Of a DNA stretch of 64,000 nucleotides, positions 7,435 through 63,900 are shown one piece after another. A program made the position numbers and the translations under genes. Origin of the DNA: Candidatus Dojkabacteria bacterium (lineage in GTDB: Bacteria; Patescibacteriota; Dojkabacteria; SC72); contig JBMNPD010000002.1 of assembly GCA_050943415.1 (NCBI GenBank), forward strand, positions 5,036 to 69,035, in the 5' to 3' direction. The notes under the pieces are model-generated. The model searched no databases. It was not told the DNA's origin and saw only the letters and a list, made by a program, of their open reading frames with translations. Each line of letters starts with the position of its first letter. Position 1 is the first letter of the stretch.

Positions 7435-7463
7435 ATATAGAGTATATTGGAGAATTATTAAAT

Positions 7464-10822: not shown

Positions 10823-11878
10823 TTAAACTAATTCGTCCCAAGATTTTTGTACTCTTTGTAACAGGTCAATATGGTCTAACATTAAAGCTGTTCCTCTGGC
10901 TGCAGCGGCAAGTGGATCATCTACTATTTTGACAGGTATATTTAGTTGTTCTGAAAGATATGTATCAATTCCACGAATTAAAGCTCCTCCTCCAGCTAGG
11001 TATACTCCTGATGTAAGTAAATCTTTGAGAAGTTCAGGCGGAGTATCTTCAATGGCATCTTTGACGGATTCTGTAATTATTTCGATTGTATTCATGATTG
11101 CCTCTCTTATCTCAATGCTGTTAATCTCTACTGTTTTTGGTAGTCCTGTAAGTAGATCTCTTCCTTGTACTCCTTGCTTTTTCTCTTTTTTAAGAGGGAT
11201 AGCTGATCCCATTAGTATTTTAATATCTTCAGCACTTCTCTCTCCAATTAGTACGTTATATTTGCTTCGAATATAGTTGATGATATCTTCGTCCATTTCA
11301 TCTCCTGCTATTTTTATTGTTTTATCTACAACAATATCACCAAGGGAAAATACTGCTATGTCGGTTGTACCTCCACCAATATCGATAATCATGCTACCTG
11401 AAGCATCTTCAACAGGTAGTCCTGCCCCTATTGCTCCTGCCATTGATTCTTCAACTATATATGCTTCTCTTGCTCCTGCTGTTTTGACAGCATCTATGAC
11501 AGCTTGTCTTTCTACTTCTGTAACTGAGGAAGTTACTCCAACAATTACTCGTGGTCTTGGTATTTTAAATCCTTTATCAAAATATGTGTGTGCTTTTTTG
11601 ATGAAGTGGGATACCATTGCTTGTGTTGTATCAAAGTCAGAGATAACTCCATCGTGTAATGGTTTAACAGCAACTATATTTGCAGGAGTTCTTCCAATCA
11701 TTTGTCTAGCTTCTTTTCCTACAGCAAGAACTACCTTGGTTCTCTTATCTATTGCAACAACGGATGGTTCAGAGACTACTACTCCATGGTTCCTCATATA
11801 TACCATGGTATTAGCAGTACCTAGGTCTATACCGAAATCGTATGTGACTAGTTCCCAGATTGAATCGAATATACTCAT
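10823..11878 (-). CDS. mreB: rod shape-determining actin homologue MreB
   Basis: FGIDLGTANTMVY...VVAIDK phosphate-1 motif. DIGGGTTDIAV. 351 aa. Confidence 0.9.
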   Translation of the reverse strand: MSIFDSIWELVTYDFGIDLGTANTMVYMRNHGVVVSEPSVVAIDKRTKVVLAVGKEARQMIGRTPANIVAVKPLHDGVISDFDTTQAMVSHFIKKAHTYFDKGFKIPRPRVIVGVTSSVTEVERQAVIDAVKTAGAREAYIVEESMAGAIGAGLPVEDASGSMIIDIGGGTTDIAVFSLGDIVVDKTIKIAGDEMDEDIINYIRSKYNVLIGERSAEDIKILMGSAIPLKKEKKQGVQGRDLLTGLPKTVEINSIEIREAIMNTIEIITESVKDAIEDTPPELLKDLLTSGVYLAGGGALIRGIDTYLSEQLNIPVKIVDDPLAAAARGTALMLDHIDLLQRVQKSWDELV

Positions 11879-29968: not shown

Positions 29969-31408
29969 CTAAATAGTATCTATCTCTTCATTCTCTACTA
30001 CATCTACTTTACAACTCCCTCCTTGATATACACCATATCCTCCATGTTCAAAGTAAGTATTCTGACATGTCAAAACATCAATATTCTCCTGTGAAGAAAT
30101 TACTAAAATATCAACATTGTAAACCTTAGCATAATTCCTAAGAGTACGATTCTTTAAATCTGTAAACAACATATCCCTAAACACATTAGCATCATTCCTG
30201 TTCTTCTCTTCAAAATAAAGATAGATTGTAGAACTCTCATCATTTCTAACATCATCATAACGGAAAGAATTAAAATCATCAGCATACATAACCTTGACCT
30301 TAACAGTATCTTTCAAAGAATCATCAACTTCATACATAACGCCATTTATATGCCCATAAGTATTAAAAAACAACTTCTCATCCATATCAAAATCAACAAC
30401 CTCTGTCTTCATCTCTACACCCTCTGGTGCTTCATCTACAAACTTCATTTTCGAAACCTCATACGAAGAAATACCTACACCGAAAGCTAATCCCAATATG
30501 GAAGCTACAAAAGCTATGAAGACACGAGTCCACTTACTTCTTCTACTTAATACAAAATTAAAACCAACATACAGAAGCATTACAACAAAAGCAATAAATG
30601 ATACTGCTAGTAATATTGGACCAAAATATGCAATACCATTAAACAACAGAACAAACAACATAGAGAGACCTACACCAGAACAGAAAAGTAAGAAAAGAAA
30701 TGGTAATAGTACAAATATTACAAAAATCTTAACAAAAAACAAAAAGACATTACCTAAAAAAGAAAGAATACCAAAATCATACCTAACAACCTTTGTCTCA
30801 GTAACAACACTCTCATTACTCACCTCTTCCTCAATCTCAACATCTTTACTTTTCTCTTTTTCTTCTTCAAACCTATCCAAAAATCTTACTTTGTAAATAT
30901 ATACAAACAAACCAACTGCAACTATGAAATATGCAACCTCTACAACTAAATGCCAAATATTTGCAAAAACAACCCCAATATTCCTACCTAAACACAGAAA
31001 GACATTTCCCCCTAGACTATCCAAAGAGCTGAAAGGTATTTTGACACATAGGATTAATAGAAATAGCACAAAAATTTCCAATAGAAACTTAAACCTACCC
31101 TTTGTTGTAAGTGCTGCGAAATTCTTAAAAGTACCTCTAAGTAAGAGATTAAAGCCATTAAGCATATCTGAAAAAGTATATTTTTTACTCTGTTCACTCC
31201 TAATCTGTGCAACATCATCTTTCATTAACTCATCAAGAGTACAATTAAAAATATCACACATCTTAAGAATCTTTTCTGTCTCAGGATACGCTGCTCCAGA
31301 CTCCCATTTAGAGACAGCTTGTCTGGATACACCTAGCTTGTAAGCAAAATCTTCCTGAGAGAGATTTGCTGACTTACGTAGATGTTCTAAATTTTTTCTA
31401 AAACTCAT
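29969..31408 (-). CDS. XRE-family HTH protein fused to a multi-TM region and an extracytoplasmic domain (membrane-bound regulator)
   Basis: N-terminal LRKSANLSQEDFAYKLGVSRQAVSKWESG is a Cro/C1-type HTH. About four TM helices. C-terminal ~200 aa soluble domain. Confidence 0.7.
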   Translation of the reverse strand: MSFRKNLEHLRKSANLSQEDFAYKLGVSRQAVSKWESGAAYPETEKILKMCDIFNCTLDELMKDDVAQIRSEQSKKYTFSDMLNGFNLLLRGTFKNFAALTTKGRFKFLLEIFVLFLLILCVKIPFSSLDSLGGNVFLCLGRNIGVVFANIWHLVVEVAYFIVAVGLFVYIYKVRFLDRFEEEKEKSKDVEIEEEVSNESVVTETKVVRYDFGILSFLGNVFLFFVKIFVIFVLLPFLFLLFCSGVGLSMLFVLLFNGIAYFGPILLAVSFIAFVVMLLYVGFNFVLSRRSKWTRVFIAFVASILGLAFGVGISSYEVSKMKFVDEAPEGVEMKTEVVDFDMDEKLFFNTYGHINGVMYEVDDSLKDTVKVKVMYADDFNSFRYDDVRNDESSTIYLYFEEKNRNDANVFRDMLFTDLKNRTLRNYAKVYNVDILVISSQENIDVLTCQNTYFEHGGYGVYQGGSCKVDVVENEEIDTI

Positions 31409-31734
31409 AACTACTAATATATATTAATTTAAATTAGCTGATTATATTCATATATCACAAACGCAACCACCAACTTACGGTTGTTTTATGACAACTACAG
31501 GTTGCATATTAGTAGAATATACCAAATTTCCAAGAAAAACACTCCTATGGCAGACCTAGGTTTAACCTAGGTTACACCTCAAACAGGAGAAAATAAACAT
31601 AAGCCAATACTCACTTTTTAAACACCAAAAAGGTTAGACCTAAGCTCAACCTAAATCCCTTTTGTAATTCCTTACTAGCTATATACTTCTGAGAGGTGGG
31701 AATAGGTCTGGCCTAGGTTTAACCCCACCCGCAT

Positions 31735-31768
31735 TTTGTCCTATAAAATTAAGAAGCATGATATAATA
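31735..31768 (+). promoter_or_regulatory. extended -10 promoter (TGATATAAT) for duplicated small gene copy 1
   Basis: CATTTTGTCCTATAAAATTAAGAAGCATGATATAAT followed by AAAAGGAGAAATAAG ATG. Confidence 0.5.
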
Positions 31769-31799
31769 ATCCCCTAGCACATTTAAAAGGAGAAATAAG

Positions 31800-32153
31800 A
31801 TGAGTAAAATTTACTTATACAAAACAACTTACGTGTCGAAACCAGAATTTTTGGCAGCTGCATACAATGCAGCTATTCTCATCGATCCTAGCTATGCTCA
31901 CTACATAATGACCAAATCAGAGGCACTCTTTCTTTTATGTCAAAAAATGTGGCGTGGTCATCCACAATACTTTGGCATCCTAAAAGGTAAACAAATTTTC
32001 CTCAACTTAGACGAAGAATGTGTTGATGTAGCAGCATACAATAAACACAATGGTAGGAGACTTGCTCAAAAGGTTCTACTCCTTTTGCAACAATCGCACC
32101 AACCTGAATCAGATGAAATACGAACGGCTCGCGATTACAACCCGTTCACTTAA
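31800..32153 (+). CDS. hypothetical small protein, paralog A (117 aa)
   Basis: Own promoter and AAGGAG RBS. Shares with paralog B: LAAAYNA/LAAFYNA, N..GxxLAQKVLxLLxQ, and an (I/E)(R/C)TAR C-terminus. Confidence 0.55.
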   Translation: MSKIYLYKTTYVSKPEFLAAAYNAAILIDPSYAHYIMTKSEALFLLCQKMWRGHPQYFGILKGKQIFLNLDEECVDVAAYNKHNGRRLAQKVLLLLQQSHQPESDEIRTARDYNPFT

Positions 32154-32291
32154 TTAATCTCTTCATGATGAGCTAGAATGCCTAGGGTAGTTATATCTAC
32201 ATGAGTTCCACTCTGTAACCCTAGACATATTTCTCTCCTTGCCAACCCATGCATAAATATAATTCAGTATCTAAATTATCATGCCATATCT

Positions 32292-32350
32292 TTGATGACA
32301 TACTCTCCTTTTACAACATGGGTATTAGAAAATGGAATATCTCAACAAAC
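32292..32350 (+). pseudogene. duplicated 5' fragment of the 7TM gene (MMTYSPFTTWVLENGISQQTLQLL…) created by the cassette duplication
   Basis: The first ~20 codons are identical to the start of the intact 33054 gene. The frame then runs into repeat-derived sequence (track ORF 32292..32501). Confidence 0.6.
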
Positions 32351-32542
32351 ATTACAGTTACTACTTAGATTAAACCTAAGTAGAACCTCAAACCAGCAGA
32401 TAAAGAGAGAAGCCTACACCCACTTTTCAAACACCAAAAAGGCTAGACCTAGGCCTAACCTAAATCCCTTTCCTAACTCCTTACTAGCTATATACTTCTG
32501 AGAAGTGGAAATAGGTCTGACCTAGGTTTAACCTCACCCGCA

Positions 32543-32576
32543 TTTTGTCCTATAACATCAAGAAGCATGATATAAT
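32543..32576 (+). promoter_or_regulatory. extended -10 promoter (TGATATAAT) for duplicated small gene copy 2
   Basis: CATTTTGTCCTATAACATCAAGAAGCATGATATAAT followed by GAAAGGAGATAAA ATG. Confidence 0.5.
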
Positions 32577-32606
32577 GATGTCCTAGCTCATTAGAAAGGA
32601 GATAAA

Positions 32607-32927
32607 ATGAGTACTATTATTTCTGGTAAACCATTCACCAGGTCCCAATTATTAGCAGCTTTTTACAATGCAACCGCTACACCTCCTGGCATTAGGAACT
32701 TCCTGATGACCGAAGAAGATGCTGATAGATACTTGTATCAGTATAGCGACTACATAGATGAAGTAGAGGGCAAAAAACTTTACATCAATCTCTTCTTTCT
32801 TGACGAGATAGATGTAACCAAATATAACGAATTCAACGGCGAGAACTTGGCACAAAAAGTTCTCAACCTCCTCGAGCAAGGGTACGCCCCTGACTCAAAG
32901 GAAATCTGTACAGCTAGAATGAGCTAG
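32607..32927 (+). CDS. hypothetical small protein, paralog B (106 aa)
   Basis: See paralog A. The 3' end merges into the conserved flank (GCTAGAATGAGCTAGAATTAGAATGCCTAGG). Confidence 0.55.
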   Translation: MSTIISGKPFTRSQLLAAFYNATATPPGIRNFLMTEEDADRYLYQYSDYIDEVEGKKLYINLFFLDEIDVTKYNEFNGENLAQKVLNLLEQGYAPDSKEICTARMS

Positions 32928-33053
32928 AATTAGAATGCCTAGGATAGTTATATCTACATGAGTTCCACTCTATAAACCCTAGGCATATTTCTCTCCTTGC
33001 CAACCCATCCATAAATAAATATAATTCAGTATCTAAATTATCATGCCATATCT

Positions 33054-33725
33054 TTGATGACATACTCTCCTTTTACAACATGGATGTTAGAAAATGGAAT
33101 ATCTCAACAAACATTACAGTTACTAGTATCCATAACAGTAATAGCCACCATAGTAAGTATATTTCGATACATCATCGGAACAAAATCATACGGCATCTAC
33201 GCACCAATAATCCTAGCAATATCCTACTCATACACAGGACTAAGATACGGACTAGCAATAACCTTCATTACCGTAGCCACCACCCTACTCTCATACACCA
33301 TGCTTAAAAAAATACGAATGCACTACATCACTAGAATAGCCATCAACTACTGCTTACTTGCCATGACAATAATCATATTCATCATGACAATAAACAAATA
33401 CGGATTAGGACTAGAAAAAGTCTCCCTCATATCACCCCTAGCCCTCATATCAATAACTGCCCTCTCAGACTTCTTCATAAAACAATTCACACAGAAATCA
33501 TTAAAAGTATCAATCTCACTCCTACTAGAAACCGTACTCATAGCAACAATCGGTTGGTACATAATCACAAGAGTTTCCATCTCTAACTACATGATTAACA
33601 ACCTCTGGATAATTCCAATCCTCATCATAATCAACCTAGTCATAGGACAATTTAAAGGATTAAGAATCAAAGAAATAATTAGATTTAAATCACTTTCAGA
33701 CGAGAAAGAAAATGTTTCTAAATAA
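33054..33725 (+). CDS. polytopic (about 7TM) membrane protein of the kind associated with alpha-L-glutamate-ligase-like ATP-grasp systems (7TM module without transglutaminase domain)
   Basis: 223 aa, 6-7 hydrophobic helices. Overlaps the downstream ATP-grasp gene by 14 nt. The classification comes from gene context, not from a sequence motif. Confidence 0.6.
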   Translation: MMTYSPFTTWMLENGISQQTLQLLVSITVIATIVSIFRYIIGTKSYGIYAPIILAISYSYTGLRYGLAITFITVATTLLSYTMLKKIRMHYITRIAINYCLLAMTIIIFIMTINKYGLGLEKVSLISPLALISITALSDFFIKQFTQKSLKVSISLLLETVLIATIGWYIITRVSISNYMINNLWIIPILIIINLVIGQFKGLRIKEIIRFKSLSDEKENVSK

Positions 33726-36161: not shown

Positions 36162-37865
36162 ATGAAAGACACATGGGTTCTACAAGGCTTAAATTTCATT
36201 TCACCTACTTCAGTAGTAGTTATGGGAATGGAAGAAAACAAAGATGTTAAAAAACTACTTGATTTAATATCATCATATCACCCCATTTTTATAAAAAAGT
36301 ACTACTTCAAAGACTCCTATCTGTATATTGAAACACCTATACCATTTCTTTGGAGAGAAGCTAGTGAATACCTAAAGAAGCTTGCCAAACAGAAAATGTC
36401 ATATGAAGAATGTAGAGAATATATTGTAGAAGTCATCATAAAACACCGAATAAAATCTATGTCAACCATACCTATATTACATAGTGCATTAACACAAGGG
36501 TACGAGGTTACACCATATATTGTGAGCGACAAAGTTATAGCTGTTGATGATGTAGGTTATACAAAAACATTCAACCGTAGATATACCTTAGGTTGTGGAA
36601 AGAATTCCCATGTAACTTTTTCTATATCTTCTTCTAAAGACGCTGTCGTAGCAAAAACAACTCAAAGAGACAAATATATTACTAATACGATGATTTCTAA
36701 ACTTGGTCTTCCTATGCCTACAAACTATATTGTTAATGATAAAGCTGATATTAAAAAAGTTTGGAAAAAACTTAATAAACCTGTTGTTGTTAAACCAGTA
36801 GGTTTAACAGGTGGTTCAGGAGTTGTAGTAGATATTAATACAATAGAACAAGCAGAGAAAGCATTTGATTTTGCTACCAAAGGTATTAAAACAAAACAAA
36901 GGAAAGAGTGGCAAACTAAAATAATGGTACAAGAACAGGTAGAAGGTGAAGATTATAGATTACTAGTTGTAGATGAGAAATTGGAAGTTGTTACCAAAAG
37001 AATCCCTGCATTCATCGTAGGTGACGGCAAGAGTACAATCGAGGAACTAATCGAACAAACCAATGCGGATCCTAGAAGAGATATTACTAATCCAACTCAT
37101 ACTTTGAAACCCATAAAGATAGATGATCCCCTACTCGACTATCTTAAGGAACAGAAACTTTCGTTGAAAGATATTCCAGAGAAAGATGAGAAGATACAGG
37201 TAAGAAAGGTTGCAAGTATGAGTCAGGGAGGTATAACTGAGGATTTTACAGATCAGGTTAGTGCAGAGATTAAATATATTGTTGAAAGTATTGCTCAATC
37301 TATTCATGCATTTACATTAGGTGTAGATATTTTGTGTAAAGATATTAGCAAACCACTTACTCAAGACAATGGTGCTATTCTAGAGGTCAATACTATGCCA
37401 GAGGCATATCTAAATCTCTACCCTGTTTTGGGTACAAAGAGAGATTATGTAGCAGATACATATGTTAAGAAATTACTCAAGGATAATAGATGCAAAAAAA
37501 TAGTAGTTGTTGGTAATCCTGAGAAAGATATACCTACTCTTCTTAAGGACAAGTTCCTTTTCTGGTCATATCTAAAACAAGATGATGTAGTTGGAGAATA
37601 CAGAGAGGGAGAGATAAGGATAAATGGATTGGAAATAAATAATGGCTTAGAGAAATGGAAAGGTATAGAGGCACTAAAGGTTAATGCTTCTCTAGATGCA
37701 ATAGTTATTCATCATAGGAATTGGGAGGATGTACAAGCTAATGGTTTAGGTTTCAACAAGATAGACTTGTTAATAGTTACTAAAGATATGAGAAAAGATG
37801 ATAGATTTAAGCAAATGATTAAATATAGGTTAAGTGGTTATATATCTAGAATAAGGGTAATCTAA
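36162..37865 (+). CDS. ATP-grasp ligase, cyanophycin-synthetase N-domain-like (567 aa, extra N- and C-terminal regions, no Mur-ligase domain)
   Basis: VVKPVGLTGGSGVVV. DYRLLVVDEKLEVVTKRIPAFIVGDGKSTIEELIEQTNADPRRDITNP is the CphA hallmark. GVDILCKDISKPL. EVNTMPEAYLN. Confidence 0.75.
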   Translation: MKDTWVLQGLNFISPTSVVVMGMEENKDVKKLLDLISSYHPIFIKKYYFKDSYLYIETPIPFLWREASEYLKKLAKQKMSYEECREYIVEVIIKHRIKSMSTIPILHSALTQGYEVTPYIVSDKVIAVDDVGYTKTFNRRYTLGCGKNSHVTFSISSSKDAVVAKTTQRDKYITNTMISKLGLPMPTNYIVNDKADIKKVWKKLNKPVVVKPVGLTGGSGVVVDINTIEQAEKAFDFATKGIKTKQRKEWQTKIMVQEQVEGEDYRLLVVDEKLEVVTKRIPAFIVGDGKSTIEELIEQTNADPRRDITNPTHTLKPIKIDDPLLDYLKEQKLSLKDIPEKDEKIQVRKVASMSQGGITEDFTDQVSAEIKYIVESIAQSIHAFTLGVDILCKDISKPLTQDNGAILEVNTMPEAYLNLYPVLGTKRDYVADTYVKKLLKDNRCKKIVVVGNPEKDIPTLLKDKFLFWSYLKQDDVVGEYREGEIRINGLEINNGLEKWKGIEALKVNASLDAIVIHHRNWEDVQANGLGFNKIDLLIVTKDMRKDDRFKQMIKYRLSGYISRIRVI

Positions 37866-37977
37866 TACCCTACTCACCAAATTAAGTCAAATTTGGTGAA
37901 TGACACTCACTAGATTTGTGTGAATATGGGGAATGGGTTTGTTGTTTTTTAAAGGAGAGATTTTATAAAAGAAACAT

Positions 37978-38029
37978 CCTAGTGCCTGAGATTTATGAGG
38001 GAATAATCCACTCTACTCAGGACACTAGG
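37978..38029. terminator. long inverted-repeat hairpin (copy 0): bidirectional terminator between the ATP-grasp operon and small gene 1
   Basis: CCTAGTGCCTGAG...CTCAGGACACTAGG around a ~26-nt loop GGGAATAATCCACTCTA. Same family as the hairpins at 38470..38525 and 39021..39075. Confidence 0.5.
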
Positions 38030-38041
38030 TCCACATTAAAA

Positions 38042-38290
38042 TTATTTCTTATCCTTAATCTTTTCTATAAAGAAGATTACTGATACTCCATAATATAGCC
38101 ACCCTACTATGCTTACAAACACATATAGGAATTTAATTGGTAATAAGTCGGCTAGTAGGATTGTAAATGGTCCAACTAGCATTGCAGATGAATACTCATA
38201 TTTCTCGAAATCCTTTCTCCATAAATAATATGATCTAACAACTAAACCAATAATTATACTAAGTAGACAAAACCAACGATGAAAACTCAT
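38042..38290 (-). CDS. small membrane protein 1 (82 aa, 2-3 TM)
   Basis: Consensus promoter TTGTCA-17-(TG)TACAAT upstream at 38345..38378 and RBS AAGGAGAAACAG ATG. A terminator hairpin lies downstream. Confidence 0.5.
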   Translation of the reverse strand: MSFHRWFCLLSIIIGLVVRSYYLWRKDFEKYEYSSAMLVGPFTILLADLLPIKFLYVFVSIVGWLYYGVSVIFFIEKIKDKK

Positions 38291-38329
38291 CTGTTTCTCC
38301 TTTTCTTTTTAATTCCTCTAAAGAAATTT

Positions 38330-38530
38330 TTAATGCGCTACACTACATTGTACCAATTTTTGCCTCACTTGACAATACTATAGGTCGGGATACTTCTAAT
38401 ATAATAAAACTCCTCTTCACAAGTAAATAACAAAAAAGAAAAGTTAAAACCATATATACAAAAATAATAATCTAGCGCCTGAGATTCTGGGGAATAATCC
38501 ACCCTATATATCTCAGGCACTAGATCCATG
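38330..38530 (-). repeat. conserved ~200-bp non-coding module (terminator hairpin + spacer + near-consensus promoter), copy 1 of 2 full copies
   Basis: About 85% identical to 38880..39085. Shared pieces: CTCCTCTTCACAAGTAAA…AAAAGAAAAGTTAAAACCATATATACAAAAA…TAATAATCTAGCGCCTGAGATTCTG(G/A)GG…ATATATCTCAG…, and the promoter core TACCAATTTTTGCC(T/C)CACTT(G/A)ACAA. Confidence 0.7.
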
Positions 38531-38533
38531 CAA

Positions 38534-38833
38534 TCAAGATTTTAAGGATTTAATTTTATTTCTTAGAAGAGACAAATTCTTTCTGCAGTTCAAAAAGGAT
38601 TTCTTTAATGAGGACCATTCGTCCTTACAATAATAACCGATATTTACACATAAGATTGCCCAAACAACCCATTTATTGCTTATACCCTCCAATCCGTCAG
38701 AGAATACTGCAATAAACAGTGTTGATAAGAACATGACATTTCTCCTGATATGTTGATCATTCTTTAAATCCATATAACACAAACAAGAGAAATAAAAACC
38801 TACAACACCTAATAATATAAACCCTGTCCACAT
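38534..38833 (-). CDS. small membrane protein 2 (99 aa, Cys-rich, about 3 TM)
   Basis: Promoter TTGTTA-17-(TG)TATAAT at 38891..38925. RBS AAAGGAGAATGTT ATG. A terminator hairpin lies downstream. Confidence 0.5.
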   Translation of the reverse strand: MWTGFILLGVVGFYFSCLCYMDLKNDQHIRRNVMFLSTLFIAVFSDGLEGISNKWVVWAILCVNIGYYCKDEWSSLKKSFLNCRKNLSLLRNKIKSLKS

Positions 38834-38879
38834 AACATTCTCCTTTATTTTTCGATCCTATCCTAAAAAATCTTGATTT

Positions 38880-39085
38880 TGAAAGTACGACTGTACATTA
38901 TACCAATTTTTGCCCCACTTAACAACGCTATAGGATAACACACTTCTAATATAATAAAACTCCTCTTCACAAGTAAAAACAAAAAAGAAAAGTTAAAACC
39001 ATATATACAAAAAAATAATAATCTAGCGCCTGAGATTCTGAGGGATAACCACTCTATATATCTCAGACACCAGATCTCCGTACAA
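38880..39085 (-). repeat. conserved ~200-bp non-coding module (terminator hairpin + spacer + promoter), copy 2
   Basis: See 38330..38530. Confidence 0.7.
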
Positions 39086-39086
39086 A

Positions 39087-39248
39087 TTAAAAGGTGGAGT
39101 TTAACAACTCCTTAATACCTTTAATTTCTTCTCTCGCAAGAGAGAGGTAGGTTTCCAATTCTTGCAACATCTTACACCTCTTTCTTACTGCGTAAACTAC
39201 TACTAATGCTACTCCCAGAGCAGCAAAGACAAAAAGTATTGCATACAT
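39087..39248 (-). CDS. small membrane-anchored protein 3 (53 aa, 1 TM + amphipathic tail)
   Basis: MYAILFVFAALGVALVVVYAVRKRCKMLQELETYLSLAREEIKGIKELLNSTF. Own promoter (TGATATAAT) and RBS AAGAAAGAGG. Followed by the conserved hairpin. Below the 60-aa ORF-track cutoff. Confidence 0.35.
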   Translation of the reverse strand: MYAILFVFAALGVALVVVYAVRKRCKMLQELETYLSLAREEIKGIKELLNSTF

Positions 39249-39388
39249 AATTAAACCTCTTTCTTACTGAATGTACGATAATGTAATTATATCAAGCTTG
39301 TATACACTACTCAACACTATAAGACCACATACTCCTCCCCACCCATGATATAATAAAACATTAATATTAATTTAAAAATATTCAAACA

Positions 39389-40342
39389 ATGAAATACCTA
39401 ATCATAGACAAAAGACAAAGAGTAGAAGTTAAAACTATGGGTGAAATACCTACAGGTTCTGCAAGATTAGTTGAAGAATTAGAAAAAAGAAACATAGAAT
39501 GTGATTTCATATACAATGACCAACTCGAATTCATATACCAAGACCAAAAAACAACAATACTAGCTGGTGGCAACGACATTCTCACATATACCCACATCAT
39601 ATTCAGAGGCCATGCACTACACATAGACAAGGAATACCATTTCAAGAGATACATAATCGACCATATAGACGAATACAATTCCAAAAATCCAGACAAGAAG
39701 ATACTAGTGCAAAACTCAGAAGCAATCAAAAGATTCCCCTACTACAACAAAATAGAAATTGCTCAAATCTGTAACAAACACAACCTCCCATACTTCAACA
39801 CATACTACAGAACAGATGGAGAATATACACAAGAAAGAAACTACCTTAAACAATACCCACTCATCATAAAAGAGTATACAGGTGCAAACAGAGTAGAAAT
39901 GATAGATGGAGTTGAAAAAATCAAAAAGAATGTATTTAAACTAGAGAAAGACGAAGACTACAAACAAGAAGGATTAGATGGACAAGACCTAACCAACTTC
40001 TTTATCCAAGAATTCTCAGATGCAGGCGAAGACTACAGAATCTTCGTAAAGCTAGGAAAAGTAATAGCAGGATGGAAAAGAAAAGCTACCTCTGGATTTA
40101 TGACAGTAAGCAAAGGAGAGTATGAAATGTACAATGAGCCAAATGAAGAAATAAAAGAGATTGCTGAGAAAATGGCATCTGTTTTAGATGCAGACTTCAT
40201 GGCTGTAGACTTCATGTACATCCATGGTAAGCCACACATACAAGAGATAAGCTTCCATCCAGGATACAAAGCATACGAGACAAAGATAGAGGGTACTCCT
40301 GTGAACATCGCAGAAGCAATAATTACTGCGTTTAAGGAGTAA
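39389..40342 (+). CDS. RimK-like ATP-grasp ligase (317 aa)
   Basis: LIIKEYTGANRVEM. EDYRIFVKLGKVIAGWKRKATSGFMT is the ATP-grasp central/flexible-loop pattern (DYR..V.G.KV.A..KR). AVDFMYIHGKPHIQEI. Extended -10 promoter TGATATAAT at about 39346. The stop abuts the convergent DUF1704 gene. Confidence 0.65.
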   Translation: MKYLIIDKRQRVEVKTMGEIPTGSARLVEELEKRNIECDFIYNDQLEFIYQDQKTTILAGGNDILTYTHIIFRGHALHIDKEYHFKRYIIDHIDEYNSKNPDKKILVQNSEAIKRFPYYNKIEIAQICNKHNLPYFNTYYRTDGEYTQERNYLKQYPLIIKEYTGANRVEMIDGVEKIKKNVFKLEKDEDYKQEGLDGQDLTNFFIQEFSDAGEDYRIFVKLGKVIAGWKRKATSGFMTVSKGEYEMYNEPNEEIKEIAEKMASVLDADFMAVDFMYIHGKPHIQEISFHPGYKAYETKIEGTPVNIAEAIITAFKE

Positions 40343-41525: not shown

Positions 41526-42545
41526 TTATCTCCTAAAATCTCGGTTAAAGGTAAAACTCCTCTCTCCAGTAGCTATCAATTCCAAAGCTATACCTGTACC
41601 CTTAACAACACAGTATATCGGTTCATCGGCAACATGTGAAGGAACGCCTGTAGCCCTAGAGAACAACTTGTCCAAATTCCTCAACTTAGATGTACCACCA
41701 CTCATCACCATTCCTCTGTCTATGATATCAGCAGAAAGCTCAGGCGGAGTCTTCTCCAAAACATTCTTAATACTTCGAATAATTGACTTCAAAGGAAAAT
41801 CAATAGCCTTAGCCACATCATTAGAATTAACAACAATCGACTTCGGCATACCTGCACCAACATCTCTACCCCTTACCTCCATCTCTGCAGGATCTTTAAC
41901 CTCAACTGCAGACCCTATCTTTATCTTAATACTCTCTGCAGTCTGCTCTCCAATCATAAGTCCTTTTTTCTTCCTCATGTATGAAATGATATATTCATTA
42001 AGAGAATCTCCTGCTACTCTTAGCGACTCATACTCCACTATTCCATCAAGAGACATAACAGCAATCTCTGCAGTACCACCTCCCATATTCACAATCATAT
42101 TACCAGAGGAAGTATGAATAGGAAGCTGTGCACCTAAAGCTGCAAGAAGAGGCTCTGGCAAAAGCGTAATACTCTTTGCACCAACAGAGTTAGCTGCTTT
42201 CAAAACAGCTCTCTCCTCCACAGATGTAATACCTGCAGGAACACTAATAACAACATCAGGCTTAAAGAACCTAGATTTACCAAGTGCTTTGTCAAAGAAA
42301 TACCTAAGCAATGCCTCTGTTACCCTAGAATCAGCTATAACTCCACTTCTCAAAGGCCTCTTTGCAACAATATTATCGGGAGTCTTGCCAATCATCTCCT
42401 TTGCTTCCTTACCAACAGCTATGACTGTAAAAGTATTAACATCAATAGCAACAACAGTTGGCTCTGTGAGAACAATACCCTCCCCCTGTACAAAAACTAC
42501 AGAGTTTGCAGTACCTAAATCTATACCCAGTTTTTTTCCAATCAT
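41526..42545 (-). CDS. second MreB/Mbl-like actin-family ATPase (orphan paralog)
   Basis: LGIDLGTANSVVF...PTVVAIDV. NMGGGTAEIAV. 339 aa. Diverged from the mreB at 10823. Confidence 0.8.
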   Translation of the reverse strand: MIGKKLGIDLGTANSVVFVQGEGIVLTEPTVVAIDVNTFTVIAVGKEAKEMIGKTPDNIVAKRPLRSGVIADSRVTEALLRYFFDKALGKSRFFKPDVVISVPAGITSVEERAVLKAANSVGAKSITLLPEPLLAALGAQLPIHTSSGNMIVNMGGGTAEIAVMSLDGIVEYESLRVAGDSLNEYIISYMRKKKGLMIGEQTAESIKIKIGSAVEVKDPAEMEVRGRDVGAGMPKSIVVNSNDVAKAIDFPLKSIIRSIKNVLEKTPPELSADIIDRGMVMSGGTSKLRNLDKLFSRATGVPSHVADEPIYCVVKGTGIALELIATGERSFTFNRDFRR

Positions 42546-50184: not shown

Positions 50185-51555
50185 CTAATATACAATTTTA
50201 GGAGCAAAACCCCAATGATCAGCTGCTTTTGCTAAAGCAGAATCAGGATGCTCTTTAATCCATTCATCTAAATTTCCTCTACCTAAAGCAATATCTTTAG
50301 CTTGTACTACAGCTTCTACCCCTGCCTCTATGCCCCAAGGATGACCTAACACTCCTCCTCCACACTGAATCATAATATTTTCACCTAAACGAGCGATGAC
50401 ATCTTGCAGTACACCAGGATGCAAACCTCCTGAAGCTACATGCCAAACAGGCTTCATACCGTACCAATTCTGACCAAGTGTAATACTTGATGGCGGAGTA
50501 ATATCTAATTCTAAAACATCTCTGACTAGTTTAGGCTCTCCATAGTTCTCCATTTTAGTCTTTGGTGCACCTCCATGAAAAGAGTCTACACCTAACAATC
50601 TCATAATTTTAGCAATGGCAACCATTGACATAGAGAAGTCTAAAATCTCTCCCTTATCATATACACCAGGTCCGGATTCTCTACTAAACAAACTATGCAT
50701 TGCTCTATGTGCATGTATTGCAAGGCCAGGATTTTTCAACCTCATTGTATGAACTGCAGAAAATCCAGTAGTAACAACATCCATCATCAACCACCTACCA
50801 CCATGAGCTTTTATGAGTCCTGCTCTGTCAAGCATAGTTTCCATATTCGAATGAGTTACATTGCAAAAGTAGAACTTCTTTTTTCCTGTACTCTCCTCGA
50901 CCTCTTTCTGCACTTCTAAAACAGCCTTACATCTATCTTCAAATTTGTTAAAAAACAAACTGGTTAGATTTTCATCATCTTTCATACCATGATATTCACC
51001 ATTTGCAGCAGTAAAGAGAATCCTTGCCAAATCAGCCTGTTCCTGTGCTGTTCTACCAACTTTTGGCTTTGGAACAGTAAGAAGAAGTGGACCTCTCTCA
51101 ATCTGCATCTGCTCTCGTATACCATCTATACCAAATTGAGGTCCAGGAAAGGCTTGTACCATCTTCCTTGGAAACCTAATATCTATGCATCTAAATGCCT
51201 TTAACATCTTCATTCCACCAACATTCCCAACAATTCCTGCAAGCAAACCTGACATATTATCAACTTCAAACAAATCTACCTTGTACGCAATTTTGAAAGT
51301 ATTGGTCTCTGGTTCAAGATCGTAAGCTACAGCTTTCATCTCATCAGCCATAGGTACACCAGAACTTTCACCATCATACACTTTTGTCCATGTACCTGTA
51401 GAACTCTCTGCTGCACACGCTCCTGCTACTTCCACAAACTTATCTTTAGCCTCATCGATCATTTCTACATCCAGATATGTAATGATGTAGTCCTCATCAG
51501 GATTTTTAGGTTGCCATCCTTTCGGTGCAACATATGGATTTTCTTTCTCAGCCAT
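50185..51555 (-). CDS. rbcL: RuBisCO large-subunit homologue, form II/III-like
   Basis: Catalytic K-D-D-E cluster (GMKDDENLTS). IHAHRAMH (His294 region). SGGLHPG loop. 456 aa. The GGLDF segment is altered to GEYHG. Confidence 0.8.
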   Translation of the reverse strand: MAEKENPYVAPKGWQPKNPDEDYIITYLDVEMIDEAKDKFVEVAGACAAESSTGTWTKVYDGESSGVPMADEMKAVAYDLEPETNTFKIAYKVDLFEVDNMSGLLAGIVGNVGGMKMLKAFRCIDIRFPRKMVQAFPGPQFGIDGIREQMQIERGPLLLTVPKPKVGRTAQEQADLARILFTAANGEYHGMKDDENLTSLFFNKFEDRCKAVLEVQKEVEESTGKKKFYFCNVTHSNMETMLDRAGLIKAHGGRWLMMDVVTTGFSAVHTMRLKNPGLAIHAHRAMHSLFSRESGPGVYDKGEILDFSMSMVAIAKIMRLLGVDSFHGGAPKTKMENYGEPKLVRDVLELDITPPSSITLGQNWYGMKPVWHVASGGLHPGVLQDVIARLGENIMIQCGGGVLGHPWGIEAGVEAVVQAKDIALGRGNLDEWIKEHPDSALAKAADHWGFAPKIVY

Positions 51556-57974: not shown

Positions 57975-60900
57975 TTATTTAGCCCACCAGAATGGTTGTT
58001 TCGTTCCATTGTTAAACCTTTTACCATGTCTCATAATTTGTTCCATTGTTGGACCATCAGAAGTATAGTCTAGTTGTACTTGTTGAATGATTGGAGATGT
58101 GTTGGTGTCTGTACTAGTGAGTACAGCTTTGTATTGGAAGAATCTGTAGCTATCTCCTAAGTTTATGGTTTCAGTAGATACAGTTGGTGTATATTCTTCT
58201 GTTGTTAGATTATCTATCCATATGTTTCTTCCTCCATATCCATTCTCTATTCGCATGGTTAGTAGGTTGGCTTGGTCTAGGTGTGTGTCTAGTGTTCTTC
58301 CTTTAATAGGGAGGTATTCTTTTTGCCACTTGAATACATTTGCTTTAGTAGTAAAGCCTCCTGTTGGAAAGGTTGAGATACTCTCCCACTCTTTTACTGT
58401 TATGGCTCCTGTATCTTTGTTTACACTTGTTACTATACCTTGGGCTATGTATTCACCTGTACTGTTTTGTTCTCTTACAATTATTTTTTCACCTGTGTAT
58501 ATATTACTTCCTTTATCTCTCATTCCTTTAGTTGTTCCATCTACTGTAAAGGAGGTATCTGTTGAATCAGATATGAGGTTAGAGTTATCTAACATAGCGC
58601 CAAACTCTATCTCAATGTTGTGTGTTCTTAGACCTACTTCATATGCTTGTCTAATTTCATCAGGAGTTCTTGCTATGTTAGAGATACGGACTTCATCGAT
58701 GAGGCCAGTGAAGGATTCTGTATTGCTACTTCCATATCTCCCTCCTATACGAAGGGGATCCGTAGTTACAGGAGATCCATATGCTGTTGTGTTTGAAGCT
58801 ACTAACACACCATTGATATATATTTTAAGCCCAGTAGAATCACCTGTGGCTACTGCGTGTGTCCATTGGTTAAGAGGAATAGTATTTGGAGAAGTAAGCA
58901 TGTTTGTAGCTCCTCTATCCAAAAGACGAATAGTTCCAGAAGTCTCGACTCTAAAACGGTATCCTGTATTATTTCCTTTGCTTATGAAGTTTGCTGATCT
59001 ATCAAAGTTACTAGGTTTTATCCATGCTTCTAAGGTAATAGCTGTAGGGTTTAAGCTAGTAGAATCTTTTATGGATATATATTCGTCATTTACAGCGTTA
59101 AAACTTCTTGCACCTCCTATTGATCCATCTGGTACATATATTGAACCTACTGGTATACCATCGTTACCGTATCCTGAACTATCTTTTATGAATGGACCAT
59201 TACCATCTATTTCATCTAAATACCAGAGACCTACTGTATTTGCATCTGGTTGATAGTTTGCATATGCACTTTTTCCTACTGTAGTAGATATATGTTCACC
59301 TACAGTATCACTAGCTATATATACAGGGAGAGATATTTTAGAAGAAAGATTTGTTGTTGGAAGAGTATGGTTTAGATGTATTAATTTAGGAGAGAAGTTT
59401 CTATCTATTCCTTGACCATATTCTGTTGATACTTCAGATGCGGTCAGAGCTCTGTTGTATACTTTTACCTCATCCAAGTAACCTTGATAATAGTATCGAT
59501 TAGACATAGTATCAGCTCCTAATCGAGTATTTGCAGTAGTAGAGACATAGCTGCCTGCATTTGTTGTAGATGTTTGTAACAAACCATTAACATATAGGTA
59601 TCTTCCTGAAGAATTTCTCACGACAGTTATATTCGTCCATGTATTTAATGGAGGAAGATATCCTGTATTCCACCTATTTGAACTTCCTCCAAAATCTAAT
59701 GTCAAAGAAGTTTTATTCAAAACAAACAATATTATTCCATTATTTACGGTAGTTCTACATGCAAATAAAGATATGTGTTGTTGATGAGTCCAAGAAGTAG
59801 GATATATCCACATCGATATGGTTATATTTTCTGAAAGAACATTGGGAGCTTGTATATAATCGCTAATACCATTAAAATTTCTTCCTTTCTCGATTCTTCC
59901 ATCAATTATTGTAGTACCTGTAGCTGTACCAGCGGTGTTGTTTATATAATCTCCTACAGATGTACCACTTACTTCATCCATGTCCCAATATGCAACTAAA
60001 CCTGTATTCTTTTTCTCAAAAGTTGTTTTTAATAACGAATATTCTTCCAATACTTCTTGAGGAGTAAGTACACGGTTATACATCTTTGCCTCATCTAGTT
60101 GTCCATTTAAATAATCAAAATTTCCTGCATTTGTTCCAAAATATGTATCTTTGTTTTCTCCTAATGCAAATGTTGAAGAAAATTCATTCTCAAGTACGCC
60201 GTCTACATATAACCTAGTTGTAGTTCCATCGTTAGTACCCGTAATTAAGTGCCAATTACCATCATTAACCGAAGTTTTACTCTCATCTACAGCTGAATTA
60301 TTTCCAGATCCATTATCAAAATCCATAAACACTTTACCTGTAGATGTGAATCTGTTTATGAAAAGGAGTAATCCTTGTGATTGAAACAACATAGCCTTTG
60401 ATGTAGTAGTAGTTTTCACCCAAATACTTGCACTCATAGAGGTCAGAGAAGAGAGATCTATTTGTGGAATTTGTACATAGTCACTACTCGTACCATTAAA
60501 TACCCTTGCACTATTTATACGCCCGTTAGGAGTAATTGTAGTACCAGTAGCAGTACCATCATTTGTACCTACAGAATCTGCTACAGTGTTCCCACTACTC
60601 TCATCGAATTTCCAATATGATATTAGCCCATCGTTTACAGTTGTTCTTATTCTATTTGACCTGTATGGTAATTCTTCAGCACCATTTATGTCAGACACTA
60701 TATTACTACTGTTATATGTTAGTGCATTTCTTTTATCTATACCTTCTAAATAGTCTAAAATAACTCTATCTTGTGTGAATACTTTGTTGTATATTTTAAC
60801 TTCGTCCATTTCTCCCTTATATAAAGCATCACTGCTTTTGTTACTTCTGCCTATGTAGTTACTTGTTCTAGTTACATTCGCTGGTAAATGTAAACTACCT

Positions 60901-63900
60901 TCTGTTAGTAATATTCCATCTCTATATATTTTTCCTGCACCTGAAGTGTCTATAGTGGCAGTATATAAATGCCATTCATTATTGATTATTCCATTTAGAG
61001 CAACTATTTGTTTTAGTTCTGTACCATTCCCTACTTCTAATCTCAAAGTGTCTGTTTCTCCCCATCTATCAAAAACAATATTACTATTATCTTGCTCTTC
61101 ACTTTCTGCAAGATTTACGAATCTTGTATTTATAGTAGATAGAGTCTCTTCTGCTGTATAGTTAGATAAAACCTCTTGAGCTGTTAATGCTCTGTTATAG
61201 ATACGAACTGTATCTAGAGTTCCATTAAGATAAGTGCCATTTCGGCATACATTCGTCGTAAGTTCGCGGTAACAACCAAAATACATGATACCAGTATTAG
61301 AAGTTAAAGCACTACCAAAACTTTTAGAAACCTTTTCTACTCCATTTAAATAGATCTTTACAATACCGTTCGACTTAGTTACTGCAATATGTTGCCACTT
61401 ATCTATTTCTAATCCAATATTATGATATCCGAAATCATCATAACTCCAGTAAGAACTATCTGCCCAACTGATAGTGTTATTAGATTTTATTAAAATGGAA
61501 TACTGCTGTCCCTTATGTACTACAGTATGGTTTTGTGAATTATTTAAATTTACCCAAAACTCTATTGATATGTCTCCAGTTATATTTGCTTTGTCTGAAT
61601 CTGCTAGACCTACAACATCATCTGATCCATCAAACATTAAAGCTCCCTGACCATTCTTCCTATTATCATATGTCCAACCACTACCTATAACTTTATCTTG
61701 ACCAGTAGTATCTGCAAAATCAGTTAAGGTTCCGTAACATTCAGTACTACAACTTCCTCCACTACTGGCAACTGTTCCACTAGTTTCGTTAAAATTCCAT
61801 TGTCCTACTAAACCTGTTGTACTGTAAGAAGCCTCTTCTACGGTAGGTTTAGCCCATAAATTGATGGTCATCCCAGTTGTGAAATCATTAAAACCTGATG
61901 GAAGAGTCACATAATCACTACTACCGTTAAAACTTCTCCCCTTGCCATACCTACCATCTACTATACTTGTTCCTGTAGCTGTCCCATTATTACCTGTTCC
62001 TGACACATCATTTACTGTAGTACCACTCTCTTCATCCATACTCCAATATCCTACTAATCCATCTTCTTCACTTTCATATAAACTTGTATTATCAAATGAT
62101 CTTAATGTACTCTTTGTAGTATTATCTTTCCATTCACTCCATGTACCATCATTAGGATTATTACTATTACCTCCTCTAATAGCATATTTAACAGCATTAG
62201 AATTATAATTAGATAATACTTCTGACGATGTTAAGGCTCTGTTGTAGATACGAACAGTATCTATTATTCCATTAAAAGCAATAGTACCGTCTTGTCTAGC
62301 TCCAATAGCAAGGTTGTATCCTGAAGCACCAATTGTACTGGTGATACTCTTTTCAAAAATTTTCTTATTATTAAGAAAAATATTCTCAACAGTACCATCA
62401 TAGGTTAAGACTGTGTGATACCACTTATTTATTTCTAAATTCTCTGTGGCACAATTCCAACCAATAGGGTTAAGAAATGCACATAATTGACCATTATATA
62501 TACTAATTCCATAAGAGCTATCCTTATCTAAAATATGGTTGTATCCACTCTTAGGAGGTGCAAGAAGCTTGAACCAAAGCTCTATAGCTCCCACCGTTAA
62601 ATTCAGATTAGAATTATGATTAACAACAACACGGTTACCTGTACCATTAAACATTAGAGCACCTTCTCCCCATCTCCTGTTATCATATGTCCAACCACTA
62701 CCTATTACTTTATCTTGACCACCAGTATCTGAAAAATTAGTTAATGTTCCATTACATGTACTACCACAACTACCTCCACTACTAGCTACTGTTCCACTTG
62801 TTTCATTAAAATTCCATTGAGCTACTAAACCTGTTGTACTGTAAGGAGTCTCTCCATCTCCTGTACTAACACCTGACACAGTAGAAGATATATCTACCTT
62901 AGATATACTCATCTCTGAATCTAGCACCCCAGATATATATTCACCTGAATGTTTACGTTTACCTTCATACATATATAATTTATATATTTCATCTGCACTT
63001 CTAGCTACATTGGATATCCTAATCTCATCTAGAGTACTGTTAAGATATTCACCTATACAAGTCGAGGGTTCACTATAACAACCAATATGCATAATGTTAG
63101 AAGTAGATGTTAAAGCACCACCAAAACTCTTAGAGACTTTCTCTACACTATTTAAATAAATTTTAACAACACCGTTTGATTTAGTTACTGCAATATGTTG
63201 CCACTTACCTATTTCTAATCCTATGTTATGATGTCCAAAATTATCATATGACCAATCAGAACTATCGGCCCAAGTAATTGTACTATTAGATAATATTTGA
63301 ATACTATACTGATGATCCTTATGTACAATATTTTGAGGACTAGTAGAAGGATTATGTTTTATCCAAAACTCTATTGATATATCATTCACGACATCTACTT
63401 TTGTAGAATCTTCTAAACGAATATAATCATTCTCCCCATCAAACTCATACGCTTTACCTATTCTTCCATCTGTACTAAGAGGCCATATATCTAATACATT
63501 CAATGCTGTAAAAAATGTAACCTCAGCTACAATAATATTATTTGCTGTAGGAGTAAAGTTCACCCATGTACTATTGTTATTATATTGCCAACTACCCCCA
63601 CTATATCTTACTGCTACAAAATGATCACCATTATTACCTTCCAAACCAGTTATACCTTGTCCAGAAAGAGACGGAGAATACATAATATATCCATTTCCTG
63701 TCTGACTATCTGTTACAGCAATACCATAGTTAATTGTTGGAGTATCAAGCCTAACACCATCTCGATTAATAATATGGCAATTAATATCGCCACCAGGACA
63801 TTCAATATCAATCTCTCCATTATTAGCTGCACCATTGTACCTATTAAGATAGAAAGTGAGATTAGAACTTTGTATACCGTAATTCATACCGTACAAAGTA

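Follow-up and report, generated by a model that had tools for sequence, protein, structure and literature searches.

By definition, a phage moron is DNA that related genomes do not have and that brings its own promoter and terminator (PMC3594210). The first moron, gene 15 of HK97, lies within an operon, and its product gp15 is a small inner-membrane exclusion protein (PMC3594210). Here, we describe an array of three small minus-strand genes in a 64,000-nucleotide stretch of DNA from Candidatus Dojkabacteria bacterium (assembly GCA_050943415.1, contig JBMNPD010000002.1, positions 5,036 to 69,035). This stretch is hereafter called the window, and coordinates are given in it. The three open reading frames (ORFs) encode small hydrophobic proteins of 82, 99, and 53 amino acids (aa) and stand between two genes for ATP-grasp ligases. 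The closest known concept is the phage moron, and membership in it is only partial. Like a moron, the array is extra DNA between two operon genes, has its own promoters and terminators at the level of sequence, and encodes predicted small membrane proteins. Unlike a moron, it resides in a housekeeping chromosome of the candidate phyla radiation (CPR), where its neighbors include genes for L10/L12, MreB, TrpRS, UvrA, and ProRS and no phage or viral match was found. Its base composition does not deviate (GC content of 0.320, compared with 0.345 ± 0.020 in the host), its Shine–Dalgarno (SD) usage is atypical, it shows no phage protein homology (a weak PHROG match of the 53-aa protein is described below), and its three tandem units have a common terminator–spacer–promoter module. 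We consider it probable that the locus is an accessory, strain-variable array of moron-like autonomous small-gene units inserted in a conserved CPR operon.

Other described systems share some of these traits. In Escherichia coli, the ldr/rdl genes of the long direct repeats (LDR) and the ibs/sib genes form tandem intergenic repeats of several hundred base pairs that encode small hydrophobic peptides and vary in copy number between strains. Their peptide genes are paralogous and come with a conserved antisense RNA gene, whereas the ORFs of the present array are unrelated and mostly too large, no antisense gene is evident, and the conserved part is the terminator–promoter segment. Integron cassettes resemble the array in that unrelated ORFs are each followed by an imperfect hairpin and cassette content is strain-variable. 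The array differs in having no adjacent IntI, no attC core sites, and no common promoter (Pc), in carrying a promoter in every unit where integron cassettes are promoterless, and in a strand bias of its hairpins that fits RNA. Class II bacteriocin and immunity loci such as blp and pln likewise comprise several small genes, many of them for immunity membrane proteins, under near-identical promoter modules and with strain-variable content. In contrast to those loci, the array has no gene with a double-glycine leader, no ATP-binding cassette transporter, no two-component regulator, no direct-repeat regulator site, and no family match.

Results

An antisense insertion splits a conserved ATP-grasp operon

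We compared the locus with its counterparts in four related Dojkabacteria species (L027, L029, L031, and L033), whose RimK-like proteins are 78 to 89% identical to that of the window. In all four, five co-directional and contiguous genes encode, in order, 7TM_transglut, ATPgrasp_ST, an ATP-grasp protein of ~326 aa, a second ATP-grasp protein of ~565 aa, and a RimK-like protein of 317 aa. The small genes are absent from these species, and the ATG of the fifth gene comes only 1 to 4 nt after the stop codon of the fourth. Because the two flanking genes are 1 to 4 nt apart in four relatives, the 1523 bp that lie between them in the window are an insertion. Positions 37866-39388 are a lineage-specific antisense insertion that splits one operon and was seen in a single species of Candidatus Dojkabacteria. 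The original prediction, made from the letters of the window, had placed the array between two separate ligase loci, a CphA-like operon and a RimK-like gene; in the four relatives, these are one and the same operon.

The insertion is common to the window strain and to L021, the contig that carries a 95%-identical allele of the 99-aa protein, and it has the same site and the same ends in both. No terminal repeats or target-site duplication were seen at the insertion ends. The window is otherwise ordinary chromosome, with genes for EF-Ts, S2, TopA, DprA, PBP2, MreB/C, Mur ligases, NusG, and L10/L12, and it also encodes TrpRS, UvrA, ProRS, ArgRS, a RuBisCO-like protein, ComEC, and ComEA. No integrase, transposase, HUH, or other recombinase was found next to the array or, at E <= 1e-8, in the scanned large ORFs of the window, a domain scan that left out a 1973-aa ORF and a few mid-sized ORFs. 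Independent assemblies from JGI and ENA contain the array at 100% identity, and parts of it are matched by Logan contigs. Since independent assemblies are identical, the array is not an assembly artifact.

Gene content turns over between two strains, and the repeated module stays

In what follows, hairpins A, B, and C are those that follow the 53-, 99-, and 82-aa genes, and modules A and B are the segments that run from hairpins A and B through the next promoter. The flanking genes of the window strain and L021 are 2.3 to 4% divergent in nucleotides. L021 lacks the 53-aa unit, and a third version of the promoter stands directly before its 99-aa gene. It keeps the 99-aa gene together with module B, of which hairpin, spacer, and promoter are 98% identical between the strains. 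Past the promoter of module B, the L021 sequence departs from that of the window inside the 5′ untranslated region (UTR) and leads into an 89-aa gene, unrelated and with hydrophobic segments, that takes the place of the 82-aa gene. The 89-aa gene is followed by a hairpin of its own (hairpin D), by ~330 nt of filler, and by a decayed hairpin (C′), which is a degenerate orthologue of hairpin C. The cassette-like organization that the original prediction had read from a single genome is thereby borne out: what turns over is the 5′ UTR plus the ORF (plus the hairpin), and the repeated module stays. In the exchange between the 82- and 89-aa genes, the left breakpoint follows closely on the promoter, inside the 5′ UTR; one breakpoint falls at a hairpin. 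Each of the two haplotypes recurs in several independent samples. No third one appeared when the proteins of the flanking and cassette genes were looked up by exact match. The exchange of cassettes can be explained by ordinary homologous recombination.

In the filler between hairpins D and C′ (L021 positions 10880-11205), no ORF exceeds 41 aa and no similarity was detected. The filler may be what is left of a third cassette.

A hairpin–spacer–promoter module is duplicated and better conserved than its surroundings

Module copies A and B are identical at 162 of 182 positions (89%) from the start of the hairpin through the end of the −10 box; for the ORFs and for most of the 5′ UTR sequence, similarity between the copies does not rise above background. 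Upstream of the 53-aa gene stands another copy of the promoter part of the module, and after the 82-aa gene another copy of the hairpin by itself. The two full copies that had been proposed are thus confirmed, and the one partial copy proposed with them resolves into a promoter-only copy plus a hairpin-only copy. Spacer B is 88% identical to spacer A and has 3 differences in 91 nt from its counterpart in L021. Over the whole of module B, the window strain and L021 differ at 4 of 187 nt, and across the 63 nt of hairpin B they do not differ at all. As a reference for this pair of strains, other intergenic DNA averages 6.3% divergence, the proportion of synonymous differences (pS) is 0.07 to 0.17, and synonymous sites diverge by ~12%. 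By this comparison of sequences, the noncoding module looks functionally constrained. A conserved small ORF in the spacer was considered and rejected, as copies A and B differ by a 1-nt indel that interrupts its 36-aa frame.

Profile searches with nhmmer of the 64-kb window and the related loci gave no copies of the module or promoter outside the insertion, and no hairpin copies elsewhere; the further module copies foreseen by the original prediction did not turn up there. A hairpin pattern run against GTDB representative contigs, among which this species is not included, gave 12 unrelated matches, at most one per contig, and the match in L015 has no hairpin. A scan of metagenome contigs returned a single contig, of the same locus. 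Elements of the REP or MITE kind, by comparison, have many copies scattered over a genome. A comparison of the conserved module with Rfam returned no match at gathering score, and at E <= 5 the array locus gave sub-threshold chance matches; across the whole window, the gathering thresholds return 7 tRNAs only.

Short-read assemblies end inside the module (contig ends of L001, L006, L036, and L037, at model positions 97-141 and 112). Because assemblies break there, the array is likely to be fragmented or missed in many metagenome-assembled genomes (MAGs).

Promoters and translation signals of the units

Each unit is predicted to comprise an extended −10 sigma-70 promoter, a leader of ~40 to 60 nt, a strong SD sequence, a small hydrophobic ORF, and a two-tier hairpin. 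The pattern TTG-N17-TGNTANAAT has five matches in the window, counting both strands, and three of the five are the array promoters. The chance expectation is 0.57, and none of 100 shuffles reaches five. Across five promoter copies, the −35 TTG and the TGnTAnAAT elements are invariant and the spacers variable. These data uphold the near-consensus sigma-70 promoter and strong ribosome-binding site that had been proposed for every ORF; the −35 hexamers quoted with them do not extend to the 53-aa unit, whose −35 element is TTGAGT.

An SD sequence (AAAGGAG or AAGAGG) stands 6 to 8 nt upstream of the ATG in each of the three ORFs. Strong SD sequences precede all four cassette genes, the 89-aa gene of L021 included, as against ~3 of 40 host gene starts. 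Judged from these motifs, the translation signals of the cassette genes are atypical for the host genome.

The SD region of the 53-aa gene is copied inside its own ORF as a 19-nt repeat (39172-39190 vs 39251-39269, 18 of 19 positions identical), and an in-frame ATG (Met27) comes after the internal copy. Duplication may have lengthened the gene, or the internal start may give rise to a 27-aa soluble peptide.

On the plus strand, a scan of the region found no convincing promoter or terminator in the array. The module contains −10-like boxes with the sequence TAATATAAT at 38397 (38397-38405) and 38947, together with weak promoter-like sites of the form TTAAAA-16/18-AATAAT. The plus-strand promoter-like sites reach 9 of 12 matches and have neither the TG nor a good −35 element. 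Over the whole region, there are 33 promoter-like sites, compared with 40 ± 7 in shuffles.

A two-tier hairpin follows each ORF

The original prediction had described a long imperfect hairpin after each ORF, closed by a loop of ~26 nt. The hairpins are present; their loop is 24 nt long and holds a conserved apical stem of 5 to 6 bp, which gives the element two tiers. Hairpins A, B, and C fold with minimum free energies of −31.3, −33.7, and −27.0 kcal/mol and have z-scores against shuffles of −5.3, −5.3, and −3.3, respectively. Hairpin D of L021 has the same two-tier architecture in a diverged sequence (−36.3 kcal/mol, z-score of −6.9). The 16-nt motif of the hairpin arms has six matches in the window, with 0.39 expected, and five of the six are within the array.

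We aligned the five hairpins (A, B, C, D, and C′) by hand to fit the structure, an alignment that was left intact by the aligner (A4). In this alignment, 89.5% of the cells are paired and five pairs are altered on both sides. The covariation score is 0.275, compared with 0.185 ± 0.028 in shuffles, and 1 of 500 shuffles attains it. Sliding the 3′ partner by 1 to 3 columns reduces pairing to between 34 and 47%.

Folded as the mRNA-sense and the antisense strand, the hairpins gave −29.7 and −16.5 kcal/mol (A), −33.7 and −29.2 kcal/mol (B), and −33.5 and −24.7 kcal/mol (D). The better folding of the sense strand is due to G·U pairs, of which there are four in hairpin A, two in B, and four in D. 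This bias points to an RNA-level element on the small-gene transcripts rather than to an antisense RNA or a strand-neutral DNA site.

Like intrinsic terminators, the array hairpins are stable stem-loops of the mRNA strand, and a U-rich tract (UAUUAUUUUU) stands directly after A and B. The expectation of a U-tract holds in part for C, which is followed by a weaker U-rich run, AUGUUUCUUUUAU. Unlike intrinsic terminators, they combine a 17-bp stem with the apical stem over 57 nt in all, and hairpin D has no adjacent U-tract; other terminator-like palindromes in the window are short. With the U-tract missing at D and partial at C, a role purely as an intrinsic terminator is not secure. The best reading of these features is a candidate terminator combined with a 3′-end stabilizer, a reading not secure for every copy.

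The A+T-rich hairpin at the edge of the insertion, just past the 567-aa gene, folds with −11.5 kcal/mol on the plus strand and −13.7 kcal/mol on the minus strand (z-scores of approximately −3).

The small ORFs are mutually unrelated and two of them are orphans

Three minus-strand ORFs of 82, 99, and 53 aa are present as had been described, and the description of them as mutually unrelated stood up as well. Between the module copies, ORF similarity is at background (53% in a global DNA alignment). Paralogy among them was rejected, with protein z-scores between −0.8 and 4 (whole-sequence shuffles) and blank blastn and tblastn comparisons. All four ORFs (53, 99, and 82 aa, and 89 aa in L021) lie on one strand and exactly between a promoter with its SD sequence and a hairpin. 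The chance of finding 82 to 99 stop-free codons at the local composition is 0.001 to 0.004 per frame start, and the codon-usage score is positive in the annotated frames only. In the window strain and in L021 alike, the 99-aa ORF is unbroken, with a ratio of nonsynonymous to synonymous differences (pN/pS) of 0.30 over 9 differences. There are approximately three hydrophobic segments in each of the 82- and 99-aa ORFs, and two or three across the 82-, 99-, and 89-aa ORFs. The 53-aa ORF alone matches type I toxins in size and shape, which are usually <60 aa and hydrophobic.

Among 5.8 billion clustered proteins, the 82- and 99-aa proteins have no homologues apart from themselves and the L021 allele of the latter. 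An exhaustive phmmer search of 1.84 billion representatives with the 99-aa protein returned its own allele only. The 53-aa protein carries the annotation "hypothetical protein" in a Dojkabacteria MAG at NCBI and has a weak PHROG match of unknown function (E = 5.7e-4), the sole match of any small protein in Pfam, NCBIfam, PHROGs, and PADLOC. No toxin or antitoxin family matched in Rfam, Pfam, or NCBIfam. Pattern and protein scans of viral contigs found nothing related to the array, and blastn against phages and plasmids found no match to it.

Discussion

We favor an accessory set of moron-like units on the basis of what was observed: the anatomy of the array, its status as an insertion, its variation between strains, proteins without homologues, and hairpins whose structure is conserved and biased to one strand. 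Under this reading, transcription would begin at the extended −10 promoters, and the hairpins, acting on the sense strand, would terminate or stabilize the mRNAs. The hairpins may also insulate each unit and block antisense transcription into the ATP-grasp genes. The hairpin–spacer–promoter segment of ~180 nt would be a duplicated regulatory unit, and the direct module repeats, together with the fixed flanks, could give the homology for loss, gain, and swap of units between strains. The route of exchange is probably natural transformation with homologous recombination, ComEC, ComEA, and DprA being encoded in the window. The plus-strand TGATATAAT box at 39346-39354 probably re-promotes the detached RimK-like gene. 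By analogy with phage moron products, the small proteins are most likely dispensable strain-specific membrane proteins with an exclusion, immunity, or envelope-accessory role.

Several points weigh against this reading. The promoter and terminator calls are all sequence-based, and a simple terminator scan missed the array hairpins because their loops exceed the limit of the scan. Hairpin D is without an adjacent U-tract and C has one only in part, and the five-row alignment behind the covariation score was fitted to the structure by hand. The codon-usage scores of the cassette ORFs, 0.06 to 0.22, are under the host mean of 0.30 ± 0.10, with the 99-aa ORF at the low end (0.06), and the pN/pS of that ORF is based on just the 9 differences given above. 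Hydrophobicity comes cheap in T-rich DNA, which makes it neutral or adverse as an argument that the cassette ORFs are genes. The GC content of the insertion, 0.320, is inside the host range (0.345 ± 0.020 in segments of the same length) and gives no compositional sign of foreign origin, and the phage, plasmid, and viral collections contain no source element. Cassette exchange, finally, is deduced from a single comparison of two haplotypes.

Some of these points would be accommodated if the ORFs were proto-genes, that is, nonfunctional products of de novo birth in fast-evolving, duplication-prone filler, with a membrane character that comes from T-rich codons. The 82- and 99-aa proteins are strict orphans, codon-usage scores fall below the host mean, GC content is host-like, local duplication is frequent (the SD repeat inside the 53-aa ORF and the duplicated module), and L021 has 330 nt of ORF-less filler ahead of hairpin C′. 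We nevertheless regard this as unlikely, given four co-stranded ORFs that each fit exactly between promoter plus SD and hairpin, stop-free frames of 82 to 99 codons at the low chance given above, positive scores in the annotated frame alone, an intact 99-aa ORF with its pN/pS of 0.30, and SD motifs that are conserved in a host that seldom uses them. Alternatively, the insertion might matter chiefly for regulation, by uncoupling the RimK-like gene, supplying it with a new promoter, and setting antisense, convergent transcription against the operon, with the ORFs incidental. The insertion site is exactly the 1- to 4-nt junction of two translationally coupled genes, the plus-strand TGATATAAT box 35 nt upstream of the RimK-like ATG is kept in L021, and read-through of the operon is possible in that the hairpins fold worse on the plus strand and have no U-tracts there. 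However, to donate a promoter takes ~60 nt, whereas the insertion has 1.5 kb, three ORFs with SD sequences, and hairpins that are strong on the sense strand; as terminators, the hairpins would keep antisense transcription into the operon in check; and it is the cassette content that turns over while the flanks are fixed; a primarily regulatory insertion is therefore quite improbable.

The original prediction had also raised cis-antisense control from the module in the manner of a type I toxin–antitoxin system, which in tandem form would make the hydrophobic peptides toxins and have their antisense RNAs arise from the conserved module. Strain-variable tandem intergenic units with small hydrophobic proteins do recall Ldr/Rdl and Ibs/Sib, the 53-aa protein resembles a type I toxin in size and shape, and the plus-strand TAATATAAT boxes at 38397 and 38947 and the weak TTAAAA-16/18-AATAAT sites are candidate antisense promoters. 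The proposal was not supported and is very unlikely to apply: the ORFs are unrelated, two of them have 82 to 99 aa with approximately three hydrophobic segments, the plus-strand sites (9 of 12 matches, without TG or a good −35) are no more numerous than expected (33 vs 40 ± 7), the hairpin asymmetry favors the mRNA-sense strand, and Rfam, Pfam, and NCBIfam gave no toxin or antitoxin match. A similarly small probability attaches to a site-specific, integron-like system in which the hairpins are attC-like or IS200/IS605-like single-strand sites served by a recombinase encoded elsewhere. Every unit does end in an imperfect hairpin whose architecture is kept by compensatory changes as the sequence drifts, cassette content is strain-variable with one breakpoint at a hairpin, and hairpin C has a bulged base. 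Yet no recombinase was found in the scanned large ORFs (E <= 1e-8) or adjoining the array, no GTTRRRY/RYYYAAC core sites lie at the hairpin bases, every cassette comes with a promoter, the 82/89 swap has its left breakpoint in the 5′ UTR past the promoter and not at a hairpin, the G·U asymmetry fits RNA, and the hairpin was found nowhere else in the window, the related loci, or the genome, metagenome, and viral scans. The last alternative takes up an earlier suggestion, that the small genes encode substrates or partners of the ATP-grasp and RimK-like ligases, and widens it to include anchors and the MATCAP-type carboxypeptidase. RimK modifies a protein C-terminus, and the small proteins, besides their proximity to the ligase genes, have short charged C-terminal tails (…EKIKDKK, …KIKSLKS, and …QEQEKQES) that could in principle be tagging sites. 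The ligase operon is conserved in the four relatives (RimK-like proteins 78-89% identical) without the small genes, which leaves the suggestion without a basis; the small genes are moreover antisense and strain-variable, and the two that were searched (82 and 99 aa) have no homologues, all of which makes a partnership with the ligases scarcely credible.

A more far-reaching form of the favored moron-like array would have the hairpin plus promoter module act as a portable "expression socket", a promoter-bearing, integrase-independent cassette system of CPR bacteria. As an integron analogue or a nursery of de novo genes, with selection on the module and not on the ORFs, such a system would capture homologue-less small-protein genes, express them, and exchange them between strains at a fixed chromosomal site. 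We put this forward as a speculation that is distinctly unlikely to hold in full.

CPR genomes are tiny and streamlined, and accessory gene gain and turnover in them are little known; the present locus is a clean, datable example. Cassette content already differs at a strain distance of ~3%, and the noncoding module is better conserved than the genes. If expressed, the small proteins would be candidates for strain-specific envelope functions (phage exclusion, immunity, and host contact) in an episymbiotic lineage, and the module would supply a strong promoter paired with a terminator, ready for use in an uncultivated phylum. Annotation should not treat the small genes as parts of the ATP-grasp/RimK/MATCAP peptide-modification system.

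Features of the array and its neighborhood

Coordinates of the insertion, its predicted elements, and adjoining genes are collected in Table 1.

Table 1. Features of the interrupted operon, the small-gene array, and the second insertion, in window coordinates (minus-strand features mostly listed from high to low position)
Feature	Position	Strand	Description
Lineage-specific insertion	37866..39388		1523 bp, from stop of 567-aa ATP-grasp gene to RimK-like ATG
567-aa ATP-grasp gene	36162..37865	plus	Fourth operon gene; Pfam GARS_A/RimK/ATP-grasp matches; orthologues directly upstream of RimK-like gene in relatives
RimK-like ATP-grasp gene	39389..40342	plus	Fifth gene of interrupted operon
A+T-rich hairpin	37874..37899		10-12 bp; just past stop of 567-aa gene; kept in L021
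82-aa ORF	38290-38042	minus	Approximately three hydrophobic segments plus basic tail; no homologues found
99-aa ORF	38833-38534	minus	Hydrophobic segments plus basic amphipathic tail; sole relative found is the L021 allele
53-aa ORF	39248-39087	minus	Single N-terminal hydrophobic helix plus amphipathic tail; missing from L021
Predicted promoter of 53-aa unit (partial module copy)	39314-39286	minus	TTGAGT-17-TGATATAAT
Predicted promoter of 99-aa unit	38925-38897	minus	TTGTTA-17-TGGTATAAT
Predicted promoter of 82-aa unit	38375-38347	minus	TTGTCA-17-TGGTACAAT, extended −10
SD of 82-aa gene	38297..38303	minus	AAAGGAG
SD of 99-aa gene	38840..38846	minus	AAAGGAG
SD of 53-aa gene	39256..39261	minus	AAGAGG, inside the 19-nt repeat that recurs within the ORF
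Hairpin A, 3′ of 53-aa gene	39076-39020	minus	17-bp stem, 4 G·U pairs, apical stem, then UAUUAUUUUUUU
Hairpin B, 3′ of 99-aa gene	38526-38469	minus	17-bp stem, interior loop, apical 5-bp stem, then UAUUAUUUUU
Hairpin C, 3′ of 82-aa gene	38029-37978	minus	13 bp plus bulged U, apical stem-loop
Spacer of module A	38926..39019	minus	Conserved, T-rich
Spacer of module B	38376..38468	minus	Conserved, T-rich; second weak promoter-like site; plus-strand TAATATAAT at 38397-38405
Outward extended −10 box, TGATATAAT	39346..39354	plus	35 nt upstream of RimK-like ATG, inside insertion; kept in L021
479-aa XRE-type helix-turn-helix protein	29969-31408	minus	In second insertion
Paralogous pair without family matches	31800-32153 (117 aa); 32607-32927 (106 aa)		In second insertion

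The interrupted operon has a second lineage-specific insertion at its opposite end, at 29969-33053. In L027, L029, and L033, the L7/L12 gene is directly followed by the 7TM_transglut gene, and the window has extra genes between the two. The paralogous 117- and 106-aa genes of this insertion each have a CATGATATAAT promoter and a strong SD, and L021 has only one copy of the 117-aa gene. A tandem duplication (32160-32500 vs 32930-33125) covers a promoter copy and the first ~24 codons of 7TM_transglut, whose start, MMTYSPFTTW.LENGISQQTLQLL, is found at both 32292 and 33054. All of the inserted genes, the four cassette genes and the 117- and 106-aa genes alike, thus have a strong SD, as compared with ~3 of 40 starts in the host.

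Another variable spot of this neighborhood is an insertion in L033 (positions 6947-8719, GCA_054814005.1), where three paralogous soluble proteins of 185 to 200 aa with no Pfam match are encoded between the RimK-like and MATCAP genes. It was rejected as a related array, its products being soluble paralogues and the module being absent.

Elsewhere in the window, ribosomal protein S2 (2588-3724, minus strand) has a C-terminal extension that matches Pfam RNA_pol_A_CTD (E = 2.4e-11), an unusual fusion. Two MreB paralogues are encoded at 10823-11878 and 41526-42545, the RuBisCO large-subunit-like gene is at 50185-51555, and the 1973-aa ORF occupies 57975-63896.

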